Shown piece by piece: positions 2 through 64,000 of a stretch of DNA of 64,000 nucleotides. A program made the translations under genes and the position numbers. The DNA is from a virus: the IMG/VR virus record IMGVR_UViG_3300042474_001185, positions 15,838 to 79,837 of that record; one strand, written 5' to 3'. Position 1 is the stretch's first letter, and every line of letters begins with the position of its first letter. The notes below the pieces were generated by a model. It ran no database searches and was not told the DNA's origin. It saw only the letters and a list, made by a program, of their open reading frames with translations.

Positions 2-1093
2 TTTACTGACCCTCGTTATTGGACATGGTTGTATGATATTGAACATGAAATCAGACAGAATGTTCCACTTTTATTTTACGCAATTTGGGATGATTTACCA
101 GACCCATTATATAATCGTAACTTCTATGAAAGTTGTGATTGGATTGGTTGTATCTCTAGACAAACATATGGTATCATTAAAAGATTATCAGCTTTAGATA
201 CAAAACCAACTTGGAAAACAAAGGCAGATTGGCAAGTAGATTATGTACCACATGGTATTAATACTGATATCTATAAACCAGCTGATGTTTCAACTGAATT
301 CCGTAAACAAATTTTAGGAGATAAAGAATATGATTTCGTATTATATTGGAGTAATAGAAACATTAGAAGGAAACAACCAGCTGATGTTATCGTAGCATTT
401 AAAAAGTTTTGTGATAAGATTGGTAAAGAAAAAGCAGATAAATGTGTATTACTAATGCACACACAACCTGTTGATGAAAATGGTACTGATTTACCGGCAG
501 TAATTGACGCAGTTGCTCCGGATGTTAATATTATATTCTCAGATGTAAGAAGACCAGTTGAAGAATTAAATCTTATTTATAATATAGCAGATGTAACAAT
601 CAACATAGCAAACAATGAAGGATTTGGATTAGCAACGGCAGAATCAGTAATGACAGGAACTCCTATTATTGTAAACGTAACTGGTGGATTGCAAGACCAA
701 TGTGGATTTGAAGTTGATGGTAAGTTATTAACACACGAAGATTACATTAAGATTGGTTCTTTACATGAGTGGAGAAAATGGGAAGGAAAAGCTAAGCCTG
801 GTCCTTGGGTTAGACCTGTATGGAGTAGAGCATTAGCATTAGCAGGCTCAGTCCCGACACCTTATATTTGGGATGATAGAGTTGATGTAGAGGAAGTTGC
901 TGAAGCAATTGAAGAAATGTACAACACACCAAAAGAAGTCCGTAAAGCAAATGGATTGATAGGTAGAGAGGCATTTATAGGAGATATGGGATTAACACAT
1001 ACAAATATGTGTCAGCAATTAATAAATGGAATTGAATCAACATTTGAAAATTGGAAACCAAGAGAAAGATTCGAAGTATTTAAAATTAAATAA
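2..1093 (+). CDS. GT-B fold glycosyltransferase (GT4-like), 5' end outside window
   Basis: NRNIRRKQ and NEGFGLATAESVMTGTPIIVN motifs; frame is open upstream of the ORF-track start (FTDPRYWTWL) to the window edge. Confidence 0.85.
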   Translation, partial: FTDPRYWTWLYDIEHEIRQNVPLLFYAIWDDLPDPLYNRNFYESCDWIGCISRQTYGIIKRLSALDTKPTWKTKADWQVDYVPHGINTDIYKPADVSTEFRKQILGDKEYDFVLYWSNRNIRRKQPADVIVAFKKFCDKIGKEKADKCVLLMHTQPVDENGTDLPAVIDAVAPDVNIIFSDVRRPVEELNLIYNIADVTINIANNEGFGLATAESVMTGTPIIVNVTGGLQDQCGFEVDGKLLTHEDYIKIGSLHEWRKWEGKAKPGPWVRPVWSRALALAGSVPTPYIWDDRVDVEEVAEAIEEMYNTPKEVRKANGLIGREAFIGDMGLTHTNMCQQLINGIESTFENWKPRERFEVFKIK

Positions 1094-1101
1094 GTTATAA
1101 A

Positions 1102-2391
1102 ATGAAACCAACATTAGTATTTCAAGGACCTATATTTACACGTAGTGGTTATGGAGACCATTGTAGAGATTTAATGAAATCTTTACGCAAGATGGATAAA
1201 TACGATATTAAGATTATCCCACTTCGTTGGGGAAACACTCCACAAAATCAAGTTGATGGTGAGAGCGATTTTGGTAGATGGATGTTAGAAAGAGTTATAC
1301 CTCAATTAAACTTTAAACCTGATGTATTTATGCAGGTTTCTGTAGCAAATGAATTTGAACCAAAAGGTGAATACAATATAGGAGTAACTGCTGGTGTTGA
1401 AACTACAATTGCACCTAAAGATTTTATAGATGGTTGTAATAAAATGGATTTAATTATTGTTCCATCTAATTTTACAAAACAAAATATTGGTGGCACTGTG
1501 TATCAACAACAAGACCAAGCATCAGGACAAATAGTTGGAGAACTTAGAGTTACAAAACCTATTCAGGTTCTTTTTGAAGGAGTTGATACTGAAATATTTT
1601 CTAAGGGAACTGATAAAGATGTGTTAGCAAATGTAAAAGAAGATTTCAACTTCTTAATTGTAGGACATTGGTTGAAAGGAGATTTAGGACAAGATAGGAA
1701 GGATATTGGTATGGCAATCAAAACATTGGCAACTGTATTTCAATATCTACCAGCTGATAAAAAACCTGGTATAATTGTTAAAACATCTCACGCTGGATTT
1801 AGTGTAATTGATAGAGAGGGAACTAGAGAAAAAATAGATGCAGTATTAAAACCATTTGGTGATAAATGCCCATCTGTATATTTGATACATGGTGATATGG
1901 AAGAAACTGATATGAGCAATTTATACCACCATCCTAAAGTAAAAGCAATGGTTTCATTTGCTAAAGGTGAAGGATATGGTAGACCTATGGCTGAGTTTAC
2001 TTTGACAGGTAAACCAATTATAGCTAGTGGTTGGAGTGGACAAATGGATTTTTTACCTGCAGAACATGCAGTATTATTAGAAGGTTCTTTAACAGCTGTA
2101 CACGAATCAGCAGCTGACCAATTTTGCATGAAAGAAGCTCAATGGTTTACTGTAAACTACTCAAATGCAGCTAATAAATTATATGATGTTTATAAAAACT
2201 ATGATATTTATTTAAAACAATCCGAAGGATTAAAAGAAAATACAAAATCTAAATTTACATTAGATAAAATGCATGATACATTTTCGGAAATATTAGATGC
2301 AAATATCAAATCTAAGCCTAAGCTTGTTCCGTTTAATATTCCTAAATTAAATAGTTCTAAAATGCAAATACCAAAACTTAACAAAATATAA
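1102..2391 (+). CDS. GT-B fold glycosyltransferase (GT4-like)
   Basis: N-terminal TRSGYG, DRKDIG, and GEGYGRPMAEFTLTGKPIIASGWSG (EGFG-x-P-x-x-E motif). Confidence 0.85.
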   Translation: MKPTLVFQGPIFTRSGYGDHCRDLMKSLRKMDKYDIKIIPLRWGNTPQNQVDGESDFGRWMLERVIPQLNFKPDVFMQVSVANEFEPKGEYNIGVTAGVETTIAPKDFIDGCNKMDLIIVPSNFTKQNIGGTVYQQQDQASGQIVGELRVTKPIQVLFEGVDTEIFSKGTDKDVLANVKEDFNFLIVGHWLKGDLGQDRKDIGMAIKTLATVFQYLPADKKPGIIVKTSHAGFSVIDREGTREKIDAVLKPFGDKCPSVYLIHGDMEETDMSNLYHHPKVKAMVSFAKGEGYGRPMAEFTLTGKPIIASGWSGQMDFLPAEHAVLLEGSLTAVHESAADQFCMKEAQWFTVNYSNAANKLYDVYKNYDIYLKQSEGLKENTKSKFTLDKMHDTFSEILDANIKSKPKLVPFNIPKLNSSKMQIPKLNKI

Positions 2392-2858
2392 TGTCATTTG
2401 CTTTACAATATAAATCTCTTATTGAAAGTGAGAAGAAGTTGGGTAAGGCTTTAATAAAGCCCGGAAATATTTATAGAATTATGGTATATAAATATGCCGA
2501 TGGAATTACAAAATCATTATCAGGACCAACTTCATCTTTGATATTCGCAATTGGTATATACGATAAACAATTATTTTGTTTAAAAATTAGTGAAATTAAA
2601 CCTGAAAAGTTTTTTAAATGGCTAAAGGTAGTTTTTTTAAAAAATTTAAATGATGAGAGTTTTGATACATCTGAACATCTTATGGAATTGCTTGTAAAAG
2701 CAGATAAGTCTGGTAAAAAATTGTATTCTTCCTATGTTAAGCCATCTACAATAGCTAAAGGACCACTAAATCCATATAGAACATATAATCTTAGTGGTAT
2801 AACACTTGTTCAGGAGGTTAAGATAAAAAAGGAAATACTTAAGAAGTATTACAAATAG
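2391..2858 (+). CDS. hypothetical basic protein
   Basis: 155 aa ORF translationally coupled to the upstream gene (TAATG). Confidence 0.7.
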   Translation: MSFALQYKSLIESEKKLGKALIKPGNIYRIMVYKYADGITKSLSGPTSSLIFAIGIYDKQLFCLKISEIKPEKFFKWLKVVFLKNLNDESFDTSEHLMELLVKADKSGKKLYSSYVKPSTIAKGPLNPYRTYNLSGITLVQEVKIKKEILKKYYK

Positions 2859-2922
2859 TTTATTTTCCCAATCGGTTATATTTACTGTTACAACATTACA
2901 ATTATAATAGTAAATAAAGGAT

Positions 2923-4989
2923 ATGGCATTAACTAAAAGATTAAGTAAAGGTTCTCCACTTACTGCAGCTGAGATGGATGGTAACTTAGATTTTTTACAA
3001 TCTCAAATTACAGCTGGTTCATCTGGAACTAGTGGAACATCTGGGGTAAATGGTTCACAAGGAATATCGGGAACGGGAGGTACATCTGGTACATCAGGTA
3101 CTTCTGGAACATCTGGTGTAAAGGGTGATTTGTTTACATCCACATCAAATAATAATCATGATATTTCATTAGGTTCAAAGACATTTACAATAGCAGGGGG
3201 TCTGTCTTGGACACCTGGTCAACAAACTATTATATCTCAAAATGGTAGTAACTACATGACCGCTACAGTAACATCTTACAATAGTGGTACAGGTCAATTT
3301 ATTGTAAATGTGGTGTCTGTTGTTGGTAGTGGTACTGGTATAACATCTTGGTTTATAAATACCGCAGGTGCAACTGGACAGGCTGGTTCTTCAGGCTCAT
3401 CCGGAACTTCTGGAACTTCTGGAACATCGGGAACTTCTGGAACATCAGGAACTTCTGGAACTAGCGGAACATCGGGAACTTCTGGGATTAATGGTACATC
3501 CGGAACATCAGGAACGTCTGGAACTAGCGGAACATCGGGTACATCTGGTACATCTGGTACATCAGGAACTTCTGGAACATCTGGAACATCTGGTATAAAT
3601 GGTAATGATGGAACATTTTTTGGTTCATCTGGAACTTCTGGAGAAAGTGGAACATCTGGAGTGAATGGTACATCCGGAGTTAATGGAACTTCTGGTGTAA
3701 ACGGAACATCTGGAACAAGTGGAACAAGCGGTACATCCGGAACATCTGGTATAAATGGTGTGGCTGGTAGTAGTGGTACATCGGGTACATCTGGAACATC
3801 TGGTACATCTGGGACAACTTTTAATTTAAGTGGAACAACCGATAATGGTGTTATTACATCAAATAATGGTACAGCCGGTACTGTAGAATCTAATTTATTA
3901 TTTGATGGAACTCTATTAACAATTAGAGGAAATCTTTCAGCATCTGGAGCATTTACATCATCATTAAGACAAGGATATGTTTTAGTTGGTGGTGCTGGTA
4001 ATGTAACTACGTTAGTAGCAACATCATCATTTGGTGGCGCAGGTACTACAACAACCGATGGGATATTCAGAGCAACTGGTTCAATCGTAGCAACAACAAA
4101 CAATTTACAAATTACAGGTTCTTTGGATATATTAGGACCTATTACGGCATCATTAAGAACGGGATATGTTTGGGTTGGTGATAATAGTAGAAGTACAAGA
4201 CAAGTAGCAACATCATCATTTGGAGCAACTTTGACTGTAGAAGATGGTACTCCTACAATAGTACCTAATGTAACTAAAATAATATTTAGTGGAGCATCTG
4301 TTACTAATAATGGTAGTGGTCAAATTACTGTAACTGTTACCGGTGGAGGTGGTGGTGGTACATCTGGTACATCGGGAACATCTGGCGCCTCTGGTGTAGC
4401 TGGTACATCTGGTTCATCTGGTACATCTGGTGCTAATGGTAAAGATGGTACGATGGGTACATCCGGTACATCTGGTATTAGTGGTGGTGTTAGTTCGGCC
4501 GGCTCATCGGGAACTTCTGGAACATCTGGTACATCTGGTTCTAACGGATTTGGTACAAGTGGTACAAGTGGTACAAGTGGTATAAATGGTACTTCTGGTG
4601 CTAGTGGATTGAATGGAGATGCTGGTACGTCTGGTTCATCTGGAACTAGCGGTACATCTGGTGTAACTGGTGGAGCATCTACTGGAGGTACGTCTGGAAC
4701 TTCTGGTACATCTGGTAATTTAACTTTAAGTGGTACAACAAATGATGGTATTTTAACATTTGATGGAGGTCTTGTTCAGGGTATAGTTGAATCCGACTTT
4801 ACATTTAACGCAAGTAGTAAAATTTTAACTGTAAGTGGATCTGTATTAGCATATACATCAGTTACATTAAGACCGGTTGATACCCTACCGGCAGGCGCAG
4901 TTGGTAAATTAGCATCATATGCTCCGGTATCACCAGCATCGGCATCTTTATATTTCCATAATGGTTCAGATTGGGTTAAGGTAGTTTAA
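2923..4989 (+). CDS. putative virion/fibre protein with collagen-like (Gly-Thr-Ser)n repeats
   Basis: N-terminal RxxKGSPLTxxExDxN motif typical of phage structural proteins; long GTS triplet runs; beta-rich spacers; C-terminal LYFHNGSDW. Confidence 0.75.
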   Translation: MALTKRLSKGSPLTAAEMDGNLDFLQSQITAGSSGTSGTSGVNGSQGISGTGGTSGTSGTSGTSGVKGDLFTSTSNNNHDISLGSKTFTIAGGLSWTPGQQTIISQNGSNYMTATVTSYNSGTGQFIVNVVSVVGSGTGITSWFINTAGATGQAGSSGSSGTSGTSGTSGTSGTSGTSGTSGTSGTSGINGTSGTSGTSGTSGTSGTSGTSGTSGTSGTSGTSGINGNDGTFFGSSGTSGESGTSGVNGTSGVNGTSGVNGTSGTSGTSGTSGTSGINGVAGSSGTSGTSGTSGTSGTTFNLSGTTDNGVITSNNGTAGTVESNLLFDGTLLTIRGNLSASGAFTSSLRQGYVLVGGAGNVTTLVATSSFGGAGTTTTDGIFRATGSIVATTNNLQITGSLDILGPITASLRTGYVWVGDNSRSTRQVATSSFGATLTVEDGTPTIVPNVTKIIFSGASVTNNGSGQITVTVTGGGGGGTSGTSGTSGASGVAGTSGSSGTSGANGKDGTMGTSGTSGISGGVSSAGSSGTSGTSGTSGSNGFGTSGTSGTSGINGTSGASGLNGDAGTSGSSGTSGTSGVTGGASTGGTSGTSGTSGNLTLSGTTNDGILTFDGGLVQGIVESDFTFNASSKILTVSGSVLAYTSVTLRPVDTLPAGAVGKLASYAPVSPASASLYFHNGSDWVKVV
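3385..3819 (+). repeat. 9-bp coding tandem repeat encoding (SGT)n
   Basis: ggaacatct/ggtacatct/ggaacttct units with synonymous variation; boundaries approximate. Confidence 0.9.
4357..4716 (+). repeat. second block of Gly-X-Y (mostly GTS) coding repeats
   Basis: Gly at nearly every third residue through GTSGTSGASGVAGTSGSSGTS...; boundaries approximate. Confidence 0.85.
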
Positions 4990-5004
4990 AAATAAATTAA
5001 AAAT

Positions 5005-5041
5005 AAAAATGGGTAATTCTAAAAAAGTTACCCATTTTTTT
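5005..5041 (+). terminator. intrinsic terminator
   Basis: AAAAATGGGTAA...TTACCCATTTTTTT stem-loop with U-tract, just after the 2923..4989 stop. Confidence 0.75.
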
Positions 5042-5096
5042 ATGCTTTACTTGAAAATTGTATATTTATATCTATATATACATATACAAAGATATA

Positions 5097-5128
5097 TTTG
5101 GAAAATATAATAAATTGTTGTATATTTG
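5097..5128 (+). promoter_or_regulatory. Bacteroidota-type sigma-A promoter
   Basis: TTTG-N20-TATATTTG upstream of the ATG at 5146. Confidence 0.75.
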
Positions 5129-5145
5129 TATTCAAATAAAATATT

Positions 5146-5781
5146 ATGGCAATAAATGTAACATATGCAATTACCGTTTGTAATGAGCATGAAGAAATTA
5201 TGAAATTGATAAATTTCTTACACCCTAGAATTAAAAAAGATGATGAAATATTAATCCAATATGATGAGGATTCTGTAACACCACAGGTTAAAGATTATCT
5301 AAATGTTATACACCAATTACATTCATCTAATATAAAGGTTATAGGATTTCCCTTAAATAATGATTTTGCTTCGTATAAAAATAATTTAAAAAATCATGCA
5401 AAAGGTATTTTTATTTTTCAAATAGATGCTGATGAAATTCCATCGGAGTATATGGTAGAAAATCTTTCTGATTTTTTATTAGCAAATAAAGATGTGGATT
5501 TATTCTTTGTACCACGTATAAATACAGTAGAAGGACTTACCCAAGAGCACATTAAAAAATGGGGATGGCAAGTTAATGAAAATGGTTGGGTAAATTTCCC
5601 CGATTATCAAACAAGATTATATAGAAGGACATCCGATATTGAATGGGAAGGTAAAGTACATGAAAGAATAAAAGGATATAACACTCTATCGGTTTTACCA
5701 GCAGATGCAGATTATTGTTTAACTCATCATAAGCAAATTGAAAGACAAGAAAAACAAAACGCTTACTATGATACAATCTAA
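5146..5781 (+). CDS. GT2-family glycosyltransferase
   Basis: ITVCNE start, FQIDADE (DxD), PDYQTRLYR and GKVHE motifs. Confidence 0.85.
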   Translation: MAINVTYAITVCNEHEEIMKLINFLHPRIKKDDEILIQYDEDSVTPQVKDYLNVIHQLHSSNIKVIGFPLNNDFASYKNNLKNHAKGIFIFQIDADEIPSEYMVENLSDFLLANKDVDLFFVPRINTVEGLTQEHIKKWGWQVNENGWVNFPDYQTRLYRRTSDIEWEGKVHERIKGYNTLSVLPADADYCLTHHKQIERQEKQNAYYDTI

Positions 5782-6769
5782 GATAGCTTTCCTTACTGAA
5801 ATGGGATTTGTTGGCAAAGTTCCAGCAAATCATCCAAATATGAGAACGGAGTTTGCTTGGATGCATGCTTTAGATGCTGACCATTTTAATATTCATTTGT
5901 TTGGTGCAGATAAAAATTTGACAGGTTATGACCATGTCTTTATTATATTTCCAAAAGGTAAACCATTTTTAAATTCAACTGCGGTAGAATTGATAAAAGG
6001 TATTAATCCAATATCAGAATTACTTCAGCAAGATATTGTTGGTAGAATAAAAGAAAAAGGAAATACAAATGTACATTATGTGCAAGAAGGACCTCATTGG
6101 TTTCAAAATGATTATAGTGTAGAAGACCAAATTTACTTCTATAACTTTTTACAATCTTGCGATTCAATCTTTACTCACAATGATTCTGATGTATATTATT
6201 ACAAAGGATTATTTCCCAATAAAAAAGTGAGACCAATTGGTACACTAATGATTGATGAATTAGTTAAAGATATCGTACCTACAAAAGAAGATAAAGTAAT
6301 TATAGGTGGTAACTTTGCAAGATGGTATGGTGGATTTGAAAGTTATATGATAGCTGATAATTTTGGAGTTCCTGTTTGGGCACAAACATCACATGCTATG
6401 AGAGAAAACGAAGGTATGGGTGGTGTATTAAATCACTTACCAAGAATGATGTGGAGTGAATGGATGGCAGTATTATCAACATTCAAATATGCAGTACATA
6501 TGATGCCAACGGTAGCCGCTGGTACATTTGCTTTGAATTGTGCATACTTTGGGATACCATGTATTGGAAATCAAGATGTGGATACTCAATTACTATGTCA
6601 CCCATCGTTATCCGTAGCAGTAAATGATTTGGAAGGAGCAAGAGAATTAGCAATACAATTGAGAGATGATAAAGAGTTTTATAATCAATGTTCTGAAATA
6701 GCAAAGAATAATTATGAAGCTTGTTTTTCAAAAGAACTTTGGTTAAGAAATATAAAAAGAGAATTATAA
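5768..6769 (+). CDS. putative GT-B glycosyltransferase
   Basis: AAGTFALNCAYFGIPCIG C-terminal GT-B-like segment; ATG 5768 preferred over the TTG start at 5738. Confidence 0.55.
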   Translation: MIQSKIAFLTEMGFVGKVPANHPNMRTEFAWMHALDADHFNIHLFGADKNLTGYDHVFIIFPKGKPFLNSTAVELIKGINPISELLQQDIVGRIKEKGNTNVHYVQEGPHWFQNDYSVEDQIYFYNFLQSCDSIFTHNDSDVYYYKGLFPNKKVRPIGTLMIDELVKDIVPTKEDKVIIGGNFARWYGGFESYMIADNFGVPVWAQTSHAMRENEGMGGVLNHLPRMMWSEWMAVLSTFKYAVHMMPTVAAGTFALNCAYFGIPCIGNQDVDTQLLCHPSLSVAVNDLEGARELAIQLRDDKEFYNQCSEIAKNNYEACFSKELWLRNIKREL

Positions 6770-6770
6770 T

Positions 6771-7487
6771 ATGGATTTTGAAATTAAAGGAACTAAGTTG
6801 GTAGAGATACCTTATTTGGAAAGAGAATTATCAGAACAAAAAGAATCTGATAAAGTATTGATTGTTGGTGAACGAATTGCAACGGAAGGTATATTACAAG
6901 CCGTATTAAAAAGACCCTTCACATCATGCTTATGTACCGACATTATGCCAATGGGACCTGGCTCTACATTGGAAAGAATAATAGATGCTGATAAAAGAGT
7001 TACATTTGTTCAGCAAGATTTTATATTAGCTGAAGAAGAAACAAAATACGATTATATTATTTGTATTAATGTATTGGAACACTTTGGTATGAACTTCGCT
7101 GAATTCTCTGGATTTGCAGGGGAATATGCTGGGGATGATTATATTAGATGGAATCACGATTTGAGAGCAATTGAAAAAATGATTACATTATTAAATAAAG
7201 ATGGAAAAATAATTATCACAGTACCAGCTGGTCAACCTATATTGTCTGGAGATATTAATCCCGGAAATAAAATGCCATTCCTTCGTAGATATGATGAAAT
7301 GCGAATTAAGTTAATTGAAGATTTATCAGTTAAAAATGCAATGAAAATTGAAAATACATTTTTCTATTCAGAAAATTTTAATGATTGGTTTGAGAGTGAT
7401 ATAACAATAACATCTCCACAATATACTCAGGCAAATAATCCATATACTCCTAATATGATATGGGCATTTACATTGAAACAAAAATAA
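6771..7487 (+). CDS. class I SAM-dependent methyltransferase-like (DUF268-like)
   Basis: YDYIICINVLEHFG, DLRAIEKM...LLNKDGKIIITVPAG. Confidence 0.6.
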   Translation: MDFEIKGTKLVEIPYLERELSEQKESDKVLIVGERIATEGILQAVLKRPFTSCLCTDIMPMGPGSTLERIIDADKRVTFVQQDFILAEEETKYDYIICINVLEHFGMNFAEFSGFAGEYAGDDYIRWNHDLRAIEKMITLLNKDGKIIITVPAGQPILSGDINPGNKMPFLRRYDEMRIKLIEDLSVKNAMKIENTFFYSENFNDWFESDITITSPQYTQANNPYTPNMIWAFTLKQK

Positions 7488-7488
7488 A

Positions 7489-8256
7489 ATGATAACAGTT
7501 ATATTAAATGGTTATAAGAGACCTGAAAATCTTAATGAACAATTAGAGGCATTAAAAAATCAAACATTACCACCTGATGAAATACTTTTTTGGTATAATA
7601 ATCCGGGTGATAATGATTTAATTAATTACGATATTGGAACTGAAATAGCTGGTGCTTATTGTAATTACAATTTTGGTGTGTGGGCTAGATTTGCATTTGC
7701 ACTTAACGCAAAAAACGATTATGTATGTGTATTTGATGATGATACAATTCCTGGTAAGAAATGGTTAGAGAATTGTATGAACACTATGAATGAGAAAGAA
7801 GGTCTATTGGGTACGGTAGGATTATTATATCCAGCACCATTACCACCTCAACATTCATCTTACTACGAACATTATTTAAGATTTGGATGGCCTGAAAGTG
7901 GTAACAATGATAGGACTGTAGAAGTTGATTTAGTAGGACACAGCTGGTTCTTTAAAAAGGAATGGTTATCTCATATGTTTAGAGAATTACCAGACCCTAA
8001 ATATAATACCTGTGGTGAGGATATGCACTTCTCATATATGTTACAAAAGTATGCTGGTATTAAAACATATGTACCACCACATCCTCGTTCTGATATGGAA
8101 ATGTGGGGAAGTATTAAAGGTGCATACGGAGGAGATTCTGCTTCACTTTGGGAATCAAATCAAGCTGGTATAGATGGTACTCCATTTAAGCAATTGATGA
8201 ACGATTATTTTCACAAACAAAGAGTAAAAGGATGGAGGTTAGTAAATGAAAAATAA
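7489..8256 (+). CDS. GT-A glycosyltransferase (GT2/GT64-like)
   Basis: TVILNGYKR, RF...YVCVFDDD and CGEDMHFS motifs. Confidence 0.7.
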   Translation: MITVILNGYKRPENLNEQLEALKNQTLPPDEILFWYNNPGDNDLINYDIGTEIAGAYCNYNFGVWARFAFALNAKNDYVCVFDDDTIPGKKWLENCMNTMNEKEGLLGTVGLLYPAPLPPQHSSYYEHYLRFGWPESGNNDRTVEVDLVGHSWFFKKEWLSHMFRELPDPKYNTCGEDMHFSYMLQKYAGIKTYVPPHPRSDMEMWGSIKGAYGGDSASLWESNQAGIDGTPFKQLMNDYFHKQRVKGWRLVNEK

Positions 8257-62061: not shown

Positions 62062-62382
62062 ATGGCAAAAGAATATTATAAAGTATCCAATCAATGTATC
62101 GAATTTGATACGGAAGCATTTACTATGACTGTAACAATGCATGATGATAAATTTACAGTTGTGTCTGTTCAAAAAATGGATGAACATATGTTCAATGGAC
62201 AATATCTTACTTTTAAAGGTAGTATGTACAAATCAATGGCTAACGCAGCTAACCCAGCGGTAGTTGCAGCTATGCCTGAAAATGAAAGAAGACAATTGGA
62301 CCACATCCCATCTATAACAGATGTAGAAACTTTCAATGAACTTAAGCAATCTGCTTTAGATTATCTTCAAACTATTGCGTAA
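62062..62382 (+). CDS. hypothetical protein
   Basis: 106 aa ORF downstream of a promoter. Confidence 0.7.
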   Translation: MAKEYYKVSNQCIEFDTEAFTMTVTMHDDKFTVVSVQKMDEHMFNGQYLTFKGSMYKSMANAANPAVVAAMPENERRQLDHIPSITDVETFNELKQSALDYLQTIA

Positions 62383-62404
62383 CTCATTGATTATCAATGA
62401 CTTA
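62380..62404. promoter_or_regulatory. 25-bp palindromic operator-like element
   Basis: TAACTCATTGATTATCAATGACTTA. Confidence 0.7.
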
Positions 62405-62412
62405 TAAAAAGA

Positions 62413-62444
62413 TTTGGTAGATTAGAATATTTTTCGTATCTTTG
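62413..62444 (+). promoter_or_regulatory. Bacteroidota-type promoter for the tRNA
   Basis: TTTG-N20-TATCTTTG. Confidence 0.82.
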
Positions 62445-62479
62445 ATATAATCAAAAAGAAATAAAAGTTTTTTATATAT

Positions 62480-62551
62480 CGTGGTGTAGAGCAGTGGTAG
62501 CTCGCTAGGCTCATAACCTAGAGGTCAGTGGTTCGAATCCGCTCACCGCAA
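62480..62551 (+). tRNA. tRNA-Met(CAT), initiator type; CCA not encoded
   Basis: cloverleaf: acceptor CGTGGTG/CACCGCA with C1xA72, D-arm GAGC/GCTC, anticodon arm CTAGG-CTCATAA-CCTAG, T-arm AGTGG-TTCGAAT-CCGCT. Confidence 0.95.
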
Positions 62552-62561
62552 CAAAAAAAGA

Positions 62562-62593
62562 TTTGGTAGTTTGAAAAAATTATCGTATCTTTA
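62562..62593 (+). promoter_or_regulatory. Bacteroidota-type promoter
   Basis: TTTG-N20-TATCTTTA. Confidence 0.8.
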
Positions 62594-62598
62594 ACAAA

Positions 62599-62674
62599 GT
62601 TAAGGTTGAAGCCATCAACTAATAAAACCGATTGAGTGACCTACGCAGTAGGGAAGAAAGCCGGACACCTTAAC
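62599..62674 (+). ncRNA. candidate 76-nt structured small RNA
   Basis: begins at the expected TSS; closed by the 8-bp stem GTTAAGGT/ACCTTAAC; internal CCTAC-GCA-GTAGG hairpin; GC-richer than flanks; no ORF. Confidence 0.55.
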
Positions 62675-62698
62675 AACTTATTGATTTTCAATGAGTTA
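62674..62698. promoter_or_regulatory. 25-bp palindromic operator-like element
   Basis: CAACTTATTGATTTTCAATGAGTTA. Confidence 0.7.
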
Positions 62699-62705
62699 AA
62701 AAAGA

Positions 62706-62737
62706 TTTGGTAGTTTGAAAAAATTATCGTATCTTTG
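62706..62737 (+). promoter_or_regulatory. Bacteroidota-type promoter
   Basis: TTTG-N20-TATCTTTG. Confidence 0.82.
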
Positions 62738-62810
62738 AAAAAGAAACCAACAACCAAACGTGAGAAGCAACAACAAATTAGTATTTTTCACAATTTAAAT
62801 TTATAAAAAA

Positions 62811-62999
62811 ATGGTTAAGTTTCAAAAGGTTCTTTTAGTTATTGGGTTTTGTACAGCATTACTTAGTGTTATCATAGATTTATATGATACTAAGTTTAAT
62901 GATTGGGGAGTGATAGCAATGATAATGTTTTTCACATCCTACGTTCAGGTTGATACAATTTCTGATTTAGAAAAAAGATTAGAAGAAAAAAATAAATAA
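62811..62999 (+). CDS. small 2-TM membrane protein
   Basis: two hydrophobic helices and a charged tail. Confidence 0.65.
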   Translation: MVKFQKVLLVIGFCTALLSVIIDLYDTKFNDWGVIAMIMFFTSYVQVDTISDLEKRLEEKNK

Positions 63000-63006
63000 A
63001 AAAAGA

Positions 63007-63038
63007 TTTGGTAGTTTCAAAAAATTATCGTATCTTTA
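63007..63038 (+). promoter_or_regulatory. Bacteroidota-type promoter
   Basis: TTTG-N20-TATCTTTA. Confidence 0.8.
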
Positions 63039-63107
63039 TGAAGATTCAAAAATAAAGTAGTTGATTGGGTTGACCAGAAAACAAAATTGAGAATCTTTAA
63101 AAATAAA

Positions 63108-63139
63108 TTTGGTAGTTTAAAAAAGATTTCGTATCTTTA
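63108..63139 (+). promoter_or_regulatory. Bacteroidota-type promoter driving the large ncRNA
   Basis: TTTG-N20-TATCTTTA. Confidence 0.8.
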
Positions 63140-63223
63140 TAAAGTTAGCAAATAACAAAAAAAAAGTTCTTTACATTATTGAAATAATTTGCACATAATA
63201 ACTTCGTGTTATATAGTGTACAA

Positions 63224-64000
63224 AATGGCCGCCTATGGTCATTAAATAAACTACGAAAGTAGGATAAAGTGAAACATTTGGTTAAGTGTTTTGCGGTTTG
63301 TAACGAAAGTTATGAGCTTGAGTAGGCAAGTGAGATATCATTGGGGCTTTGTATGTGAGGGTAACACTGTAGCAGAAGAGTTTTGATGACTGAGCAATTG
63401 TAGATTGTTCAGTTGAGTTGGGAACAACGATAAGAATAACTCATAGGATTATTGTAAGATATATGAACTTAATCCCTTCATACTATTGCGTGATTCAATA
63501 TTAGAGTGGTCTTAACATCAAACTATCCGTAAGGACGTAAGATAAGACTGTGTACGCGTGGTGGCGTTACTATCCTTGTATAGAGTTTACCAAAACCTAT
63601 ACTTGAAGATGACTCAAAATATGGTGATAGGGATATCACATCTGGTAGTATAGTATTCTGTTCTTCAAAAGGGGACAGAGCTGGTGATGAACCACTACCG
63701 GAATCCATCTACGAACCAAACCCTTTATGCTAAATATACAGGATATATAAACATAAAAGCAAAAGTGTTCATCAGTTATGACTGAAAGATGTCTACACAG
63801 TATTGAGTGTTCAATGCCATTGTTACTCGCAAGGTAATGGTGATTCTTTCGAAAGGTTTCTAATTCCGCAAGAACTAATCAGGCCGATAGGTTTGAAGAA
63901 AATAAGTAAAGAGAGAGTAGGTTATGACTTTAAGATTGGTTGGCTATACTAACCGACATTGATTTGGTACTTCTCAAAAGGAAGTGGAAACGAAAGGAAC
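63224..64000 (+). ncRNA. large structured ncRNA, GOLLD-like (continues past the window end)
   Basis: about 780 nt without a credible ORF, GC-richer than flanks, many GNRA-capped hairpins (CTAC-GAAA-GTAG, TAAC-GAAA-GTTA, TCC-GTAA-GGA, C-GCAA-G twice), near a tRNA; 5' end approximate. Confidence 0.75.

Follow-up and report, generated by a model that had tools for sequence, protein, structure and literature searches.

The window (the whole 64,000-nt stretch of viral DNA that was analysed) ends in the first 776 nt of a GOLLD RNA gene of about 822 nt, at 63225-64000. A probability of roughly 0.9 was assigned to this reading, in which the gene is of the common lake/env-38 type and belongs to a large uncultured freshwater phage. 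The RNA is an ordinary new member of the known GOLLD family, of a type already solved by cryo-EM. GOLLD RNA was abundant in lake metatranscriptomes and the flank upstream of it was not, and base pairing in its 5' domain is strongly selected. Ahead of the gene lie a promoter-like repeat and a leader resembling those of ribosomal RNA operons.

Family assignment and extent of the RNA

The whole window was scanned with Rfam release 15 at gathering thresholds, yielding two matches only, GOLLD and a tRNA-Met. Positions 63641-64000 (+) matched RF02032 (GOLLD) with 227.3 bits (E = 4.1e-63) over model positions 1-370 of 416, the gathering score of this family being 150 bits. A GOLLD search of the window's own record gave 173.2 bits, also above the 150-bit cut-off. 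The family call made in an earlier reading of the letters alone (the sequence-only reading) was thereby borne out. The ROOL model, which that reading had named beside GOLLD for a covariance-model search, gave no match at gathering thresholds anywhere in the window. ROOL is another large ornate phage-associated RNA found near tRNAs, and forms RNA-only octameric or hexameric cages; its sequence and fold are unrelated to those of the window RNA.

The match constitutes the GOLLD 3' domain (63641-64000, +), the last 47 nt of which are lost at the contig end. The order of 3' motifs given in the sequence-only reading is the order of the Rfam consensus: a UCAAAAG loop, AAAGCAAAAGU, GAAAG, CUCGCAAGG, GGUUGG..CCAACC and a second AAAA loop. 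One 3' hairpin (63802-63819) is shorter than in the consensus, and an A-rich variable linker, without a tRNA, occupies approximately 63703-63772. Viral contigs contained no exact match to a 32-mer of the 3' domain; degenerate 5' motifs did match. The region is poor in open reading frames, the longest in 63140-64000 having 61 aa on the minus strand, in agreement with the claim that it is non-coding. With 776 nt present, and 822 nt as estimated from the lake contig L228, the RNA is of GOLLD size.

The RNA had been described as truncated by the window. The truncation is real, and its cause is the end of the contig, not a cut made by the window: the window covers positions 15838-79837, up to the last base of a 79,837-base linear IMG/VR virus record that CheckV scored as 37% complete. 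The GOLLD match was flagged as cut at its 3' end by the Rfam scan; model positions 371-416 lie beyond the contig end, and the complete 3' domain was seen in relatives only. A 37-nt word taken from the end of the window had exact matches in 15 metagenome contigs, five of which were 96-98% identical over the RNA region. L228 was 98.6% identical over 775 nt. Its RNA has 822 nt, continuing 47 nt past the window's last base, and its 3' domain is complete (281.7 bits, model 1-416). Complete 3' domains scored 282-293 bits in L228, L234, L233, L239 and L231, and 282-286 bits in the relatives of 96-98% identity.

A decaying or truly 3'-truncated GOLLD remnant, and not a working gene, would also stop short of the family's 3' end, as the window and its contig do by 47 nt. 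This is very improbable. The break is an assembly end, at least five of the 96-98% identical contigs continuing into a complete 3' domain, and only six pairs are non-standard among the 370 model positions present (Rfam alignment). RNA contigs from the metatranscriptomes described below also continue beyond 63999, and their loose ends agree with the missing tail (AATAATCTTTCTAAAGCTG). The locus is thus read as a working gene interrupted by assembly.

Homology and base pairing of the 5' domain

The window holds 416 nt of the RNA before the start of the Rfam model. These were assigned to the GOLLD 5' domain (63225-63640, +; the cap domain, approximately env-38 residues 1-420) from collinearity with env-38, from 59 homologues and from 19 covarying helices. 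Env-38 is a GOLLD RNA of 833 nt, solved by cryo-EM as a 14-mer with D7 symmetry (PDB 9MEE; Kretsch et al. 2025, PMC12286853), with a 5' region of residues 1-420 and a 3' region of residues 421-833. After the T7 promoter and GG, the env-38 construct starts ATGGCCGC..TATGGTCGTCAAATAAA..TACGAAAGTAGGATAAAGTGG, and the window from 63225 is collinear with it for the approximately 190 nt that are printed in the supplement of PMC12286853. The construct's first bases (ATGGCC) correspond to 63225-63230, so that the start at 63224 in the sequence-only reading is one base early.

A BLAST search of 63100-64000 against GenBank phages found two uncultured phage genomes of approximately 640 kb with matches in the 5' half, and both carry a complete GOLLD 3' domain approximately 440 nt downstream of the match. 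The 28-nt 5' motif AAATAAAC-NN-CGAAAG-NN-GGATAAAGTG was present in more than 120 IMG/VR contigs at least, always 379-416 nt upstream of the 3' domain loop motif among the matches listed. Among 185,579 bacterial species representatives it had one match, on a contig of 2 kb assigned by binning to an uncultured Bacteroidetes MAG. The lake/env-38 5' domain is accordingly widespread and tightly conserved in viral contigs and almost absent from bacterial genomes. The nearest of 61 full-length homologues, L029, shares 85% identity with the window in the 5' domain and 73% in the 3' domain. The suggestion of a possibly divergent 5' half was therefore dropped, the half being of the standard lake/env-38 type.

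The same data bear on whether the RNA could be chimeric or a new large RNA, GOLLD in its 3' half only, with a divergent or unrelated 5' half (63224-63640). The Rfam model covers the 3' domain only, leaving the 5' half without an Rfam match, and the 5' region of GOLLD has been called less conserved (PMC12286853). Such an origin is nevertheless extremely unlikely: all 59 homologues aligned with the 5' half precede a GOLLD 3' domain, each lying approximately 380-416 nt upstream of its loop motif; the half is collinear with env-38; and against the nearest relatives it is better conserved than the 3' half. Both halves are taken here as one GOLLD RNA.

Every helix and motif listed in the sequence-only reading was found in its place. 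The helix AATGGCC/GGTCATT lies at 63224-63243, the hairpin CTAC-GAAA-GTAG at 63251-63262 and the hairpin TCC-GTAA-GGA at approximately 63531-63540. Further helices are AAACATTT/AAGTGTTT, TAAC-GAAA-GTTA, CCATTGTTAC-TCGCAAG-GTAATGG and GGTTGG..CTAACC. The first TCAAAAG loop is enclosed by TTCTGTTCT..GGGACAGAG, and the second lies near 63974.

Folding of the 5' half was better than in 100 of 100 shuffles (z = -3.97). Covariation was evaluated on an alignment of 60 5' domains, of which one was the window's, 57 came from IMG/VR loci and two from the huge phages. RNAalifold gave 94 pairs for this alignment, 71 with compensatory double changes. Pair counts were made on the RNAalifold pairs plus the first hairpin of the sequence-only reading (98 pairs, 5,865 cells). 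Standard pairs filled 96.6% of these cells, as against 36-43% with the partners slid by 1-3 columns, and both-sided changes occurred in 73 of the 98 pairs. The covariation score was 0.539, compared with 0.08-0.11 for slid and 0.207 for shuffled alignments, and none of 500 shuffles attained any of the observed pairing measures. Nineteen helices of the 5' domain were backed by covariation, which upholds the claim of an RNA gene. Several invariant G-U pairs, which become A-C on the opposite strand, identify + as the RNA strand.

In the first hairpin, the loop GCCTAT (63231-63236) also pairs long-range with 63323-63328, with strong covariation; the local GGCC/GGTC stem is nearly invariant and has one covarying pair only. 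An insertion hairpin of 17 nt at approximately 63520-63540, containing TCC-GTAA-GGA, is common to the window and its nearest relatives only, in place of the short CC-GAAA-GG hairpin of most homologues; the longer arm could alter cap contacts in this clade. A loop taken for the self-kissing L21a was out of register on the MAFFT alignment.

The window RNA resembles env-38 in its two domains (5' of approximately 416-420 nt, 3' of approximately 407-413 nt), in the ATGGCC start and the collinear stretch that follows, in the order of 3' motifs, in length class (an estimated 822 nt as against 833 nt) and in having a tRNA-Met upstream, as env-38 has (PMC12286853). The two differ in source (freshwater as against marine). 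The window clade has the 17-nt insertion hairpin, one 3' hairpin of the window RNA is shortened, and its last 47 nt are unassembled. The Streptococcus agalactiae GOLLD, a 700-nt RNA forming a dodecamer (PDB 9L0R; PMC12990946), is of the same family and shares the 3' domain core P14-P27; it comes from a Firmicute prophage and is without P9, P11a-c and P21b. Its homology with env-38 places the window RNA in the fuller lake type.

Putative promoter units, expression and the boxA-like leader

The 64-kb window contains five copies of the repeat TTTGGTAG-N15-GTATCTTT, with 0 expected in shuffles. All five are on the + strand between 62413 and 63138, within the last 1.6 kb, and span approximately 750 nt. 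A motif search placed copies 1-4 at 62413-62443, 62562-62592, 62706-62736 and 63007-63037, and the GOLLD-proximal copy 5 at 63108-63138. Each reads TTTG, 20 nt and TATCTTT(G/A), with G as the last base twice and A three times. This fits Bacteroidota sigma-A-type promoters, which consist of a -33 TTTG and a -7 TAnnTTTG spaced by approximately 19-21 nt. The rRNA promoters of relatives of the Bacteroidetes MAG carry TATCTTTG or TACCTTTG. The position of copy 5 is kept in L228, L234, L232, L235, L233, L239, L143 and L029, and transcription from it would be expected to start near 63145.

Other promoter patterns were scanned as well. A sigma-70-type scan gave no signal, with 7 sites as against 7.5 expected, and the site TTGCAC-N17-TATAGT before 63224 is therefore unsupported by itself. 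The pattern TTTG-N19-TAnnTTTR misses the five repeats, whose spacing is 20 nt, and its four matches are at chance level. GTTCTTTA was only mildly enriched in the window (9 matches with 4.5 expected), the other copies lying inside genes, and was rejected as a general promoter class of the phage.

Each repeat heads a unit of its own. Copy 1 heads a cassette with the tRNA-Met (CAT anticodon, 62480-62552, +; Rfam tRNA 63.4 bits at 62480-62551, and ARAGORN), copy 2 an element of approximately 105 nt closed by the hairpin GTTAAGGT/ACCTTAAC, copy 3 a hydrophobic ORF of 62 aa (62811-62999, +), copy 4 an element of approximately 60 nt closed by AAGATTC/GAATCTT, and copy 5 the GOLLD leader. L228 has three promoter copies and is without the ORF cassette. 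An Rfam E-value scan of 62300-63260 returned the tRNA only, the small cassettes having no known-family match. No intrinsic terminator was found between the promoter repeats, so that some read-through is possible. Of the stacked promoters described in the sequence-only reading, five putative promoters stand; since each copy has its own unit, and L228 lacks one, their arrangement is better described as promoter-bounded modules in tandem, the last alone being GOLLD-proximal, than as one stack.

Twenty public runs contained part of 62400-64000, and six of these were lake metatranscriptomes with about one third of its words. Lake metagenomes were also found that contain over 85% of its sampled words. 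Summed k-mer depths over 63210-64000 in four RNA studies were 15, approximately 430-4,800, approximately 1,100-8,250 and approximately 80-470, and depth in the same RNA contigs was 0-3 over 62400-63209 (tRNA, cassettes, promoters and leader), all of these being depths of assembled contigs, which are strandless, carry no true ends or levels and sum related variants. One RNA contig of 706 nt had 3 mismatches to the window and several shorter ones had none. The silence of the upstream flank argues against carry-over of DNA. The high expression that had been proposed is supported by these contigs, and RNA of the exact lineage at very high depth in lakes fits a major phage product in nature.

RNA contigs were all but absent over the leader (63146-63243), which means that it is cut off or that the RNA begins closer to 63220. 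In three studies RNA contigs had their left ends at 63244/63245. These were considered as the 5' end and rejected; they coincide with the start of an invariant block and are probably breaks of the assembly graph.

These depths also bear on a reading in which the five promoters do act as a stack, their summed read-through giving an rRNA-like GOLLD output and the cassettes being pieces of its leader. The co-orientation of the repeats within 750 nt, the lack of an intrinsic terminator found between them and the very high GOLLD depth are in its favour. It is nonetheless rather unlikely. Long precursors are not abundant, with depths of 0-3 upstream as against hundreds to thousands over GOLLD, although read-through precursors could be quickly processed. 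The cassettes hold distinct conserved contents (a tRNA, an ORF and small conserved elements), L228 is without one of them and yet keeps GOLLD, and a boxA follows the last promoter only. Separate promoter-plus-cassette units are therefore preferred.

The boxA-like element GTTCTTTACATT lies at 63166-63177 (+), and its extended form AGTTCTTTACATTATTGAAA (63165-63184) occurs once in the window. It is followed at 63190-63220 (+) by a predicted leader hairpin with two stems of 5 bp, separated by a 3x3 internal loop and closed by a TTCGT loop. Boxes of the GTTCTTTAA type were tested as rrn-type boxA against the upstream regions of relatives and against rRNA operons. In the right-aligned upstream regions of 25 relatives, AGTTCTTT(A/G)A was present in all, approximately 50-60 nt before the RNA body. 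Of 122 unique lake-type GOLLD loci, 114 have G[TC]TCTTT[AG]A in the 150 nt upstream (background 0.09 per kb) and 121 have the GTTCTTT core; seven of the eight loci without the full pattern keep the core, the window among them. The window box lacks one base of the family consensus (GTTCTTTACA versus GTTCTTTAACA), and its AGTTCTTTACATTATTGAAA is one base shorter than the GTTCTTTAACATATTG of L029 and L143.

The E. coli rrn boxA is TGCTCTTTAACAA, and lambda nut consists of boxA-boxB. NusB/NusE bind boxA in the rrn antitermination complex, and in rRNA operons boxA works downstream of the promoter, ahead of a long untranslated structured RNA. The comparison with rRNA operons was made on three 16S loci from relatives of the uncultured Bacteroidetes MAG. 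All three carry GTTCTTTGAAGTATTGG, GTTCTTTGAAGTATGAG or GTTCTTTGATTTATTGG 84-94 nt before 16S, and all three carry a second box after 16S, towards 23S (GTTCTTTGACATATTGAAAAG, GTTCTTTGACATATTGGGAAAA or GTTCTTTAATCTGCAG). The window's GTTCTTTACATTATTGAAA matches the rrn GTTCTTTGACATATTGAAAAG and GTTCTTTGAAGTATTGG in sequence, and likewise stands between a promoter and a structured RNA. By this comparison the phage box is a match to the rrn boxA of the likely host phylum, the ATTG extension included. In the literature that was searched, no paper was found linking GOLLD with boxA or antitermination.

Single-sequence folds gave the same two-tier hairpin in members of the clade. Its stem variants (ATAAC/GTTAT, GTAAC/GTTAC, GTGAG/CTCAC and GTAGA/TCTAC) are compensatory by inspection. 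The hairpin is clade-specific, and the length of leader from boxA to GOLLD ranges from 15 to 127 nt across the family. The arrangement resembles an rrn boxA leader in that a GTTCTTT(A/G)A box closely follows a strong host-type promoter, next to a hairpin and before a long untranslated structured RNA. It differs in lying in a phage, ahead of a non-ribosomal RNA, and in the order of its elements, which is boxA then hairpin in the window and hairpin then boxA in the sampled rrn leaders.

We would put at close to even the prospect that the boxA leader recruits the host Nus antitermination complex, protecting the GOLLD transcript from Rho and helping it to fold. A wider reading is held tentatively, a little short of even odds: lake-type GOLLD genes may be expressed like miniature rRNA operons, with a host sigma-A promoter, a host-type boxA and a leader hairpin, the phage borrowing the host's Nus/RNA-chaperone complex to produce the cage RNA, shield it from Rho and fold it co-transcriptionally. 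The GTTCTTT box might instead be a site of processing, a promoter element specific to the phage or the 3' end of a small RNA lying upstream. That the spacing from box to RNA body varies over 15-127 nt, and that the window copy is off by one base, would suit such roles, and they are a serious possibility, if somewhat less than an even one. They leave aside that box and extension match the element found before and after 16S in all three of the MAG-relative operons, and that the box stands between a host-type promoter and a long untranslated structured RNA, as in rRNA operons. An antitermination signal is accordingly the role carried into the model below.

Genomic context and implications for GOLLD

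The tRNA-Met lies 673 nt upstream of GOLLD in the same orientation. Upstream sequence of 1.5 kb or more was available for 112 unique lake-type GOLLD loci; 34 of these have a tRNA on the same strand within 1.5 kb upstream, which is tRNA-Met in 31 of the 34. Downstream, tRNAs were found within 2 kb in 24 of 68 lake-type loci. Adjacency to tRNAs is thus frequent and not obligatory (approximately 30% of loci upstream, 35% downstream). In near-identical relatives the tRNA-Met is followed by the promoter units, by GOLLD, by approximately 700 nt and then by 14-24 tRNAs. The 700 nt after GOLLD in L228 contain two weak tRNA-like elements (18 bits, below threshold), the first of them 8 nt after GOLLD. 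L228 also has a terminator just ahead of the tRNA array.

The genes of the window are all on the + strand; among them are those for a collagen-like tail fibre and glycosyltransferases, and many are unknowns. Tail-fibre and other phage families are present in the IMG/VR virus record that holds the GOLLD gene. No integrase was found in the record; as the record is 37% complete, this has no bearing on whether the phage is lytic, as the sequence-only reading had it, or temperate. A Bacteroidota host is plausible from the likeness of promoter and boxA and from the one binned 2-kb contig.

A model was assembled from these elements. Host RNA polymerase would transcribe GOLLD from the Bacteroidota sigma-A-type promoter at 63108-63138, as its sequence suggests, and would traverse an rRNA-operon-style leader with boxA at 63166-63177 and the hairpin at 63190-63220. 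The leader would recruit the host Nus antitermination complex, giving the long untranslated transcript protection from Rho and help in folding. By homology with env-38, the transcript would then self-assemble, protein-free, into a closed multimeric RNA-only cage (14 copies in env-38), with 5' domains as caps, 3' domains as rings and the A-rich linker facing inward (PMC12286853, PMC12990946). The cage might serve the tRNA and translation economy of the phage at a late stage of infection, for example by holding or shielding tRNA-sized cargo or ribosomal components in its interior or on its surface; this is speculative and on balance doubtful.

The single locus is one more GOLLD gene and adds little by itself. 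The small addition made here is that GOLLD is apparently produced behind a leader signal like those of ribosomal RNA. The boxA leader, near-universal at such loci, suggests a route by which GOLLD RNA is produced and gives a means of perturbing it. If true, the reading of the locus as a miniature rRNA operon would be the first handle on GOLLD production, and mutants of the box would provide a genetic switch for probing the role of the cage.

Promoter-headed cassettes upstream of GOLLD

Five near-identical promoters were found at window positions 62401-63145, upstream of the GOLLD RNA, with one short cassette behind each. One of these cassettes (62811-62999) contains an ORF for a hydrophobic product of 62 aa, and is absent from L228, a lake contig that is 97% identical; on this comparison of sequences, the promoter repeats therefore seem to delimit movable modules. 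An Rfam scan gave no family match for the two small non-coding cassettes, at 62593-62700 and 63038-63100. A small element, GTAGTTGATTGG..CCAGAAAACAAAATTGA (63055-63095), which several related phages also carry 5' of GOLLD (contigs L151, L029, L143 and L242), may be a conserved small RNA. Its cover by RNA-seq contigs was scant, with a depth of about 2 in one run, although small RNAs are captured poorly. Phage-encoded tmRNA genes were also observed 5' of the tRNA-Met/GOLLD unit in two related phage contigs (L143:787-1199 and L145:5794-6173), lying between a few hundred bases and roughly 2 kb away.

tRNA-like elements 3' of GOLLD

Two paralogous tRNA-like elements were located just past the position of the window's end in L228 (11563-11632 and 11848-11932), the GOLLD-bearing relative with 98.6% identity. 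Both have acceptor-like ends (GCGGT.../...ACCGC), and the first starts only 8 nt beyond the GOLLD 3' end. Against the models for tRNA and tRNA-Sec they scored 18 bits, under threshold, and ARAGORN called no tRNA at either element. These elements may mark the site of GOLLD 3' processing. A tRNA begins about 10 nt 3' of GOLLD in LR756502, an uncultured huge-phage genome.

Distribution and 5' domain of lake-type GOLLD

Full-length GOLLD with the same 5' type as that of the window was identified in LR756502 (642 kb) and in a second published huge-phage genome, LR745206 (635 kb). It is unannotated in both, and both copies have an insertion of 20-40 nt late in the 5' domain. A search of 185,579 species-representative genomes with the lake-type 5' motif yielded a single match, L242 (CAIJZG010000155.1). 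This short contig (2,092 bp) was assigned to the MAG of an uncultured Bacteroidetes; it is probably phage DNA that went into the same bin as its host.

The window copy carries a clade-specific insertion hairpin of 17 nt, TCC-GTAA-GGA (63520-63540), in place of the short CC-GAAA-GG hairpin that is kept by most lake-type GOLLDs. If the replaced loop corresponds to the conserved GAAA loop that faces the cap pore in env-38, the GOLLD solved by cryo-EM as a 14-mer cage, the arm of the window RNA would extend deeper into the pore.
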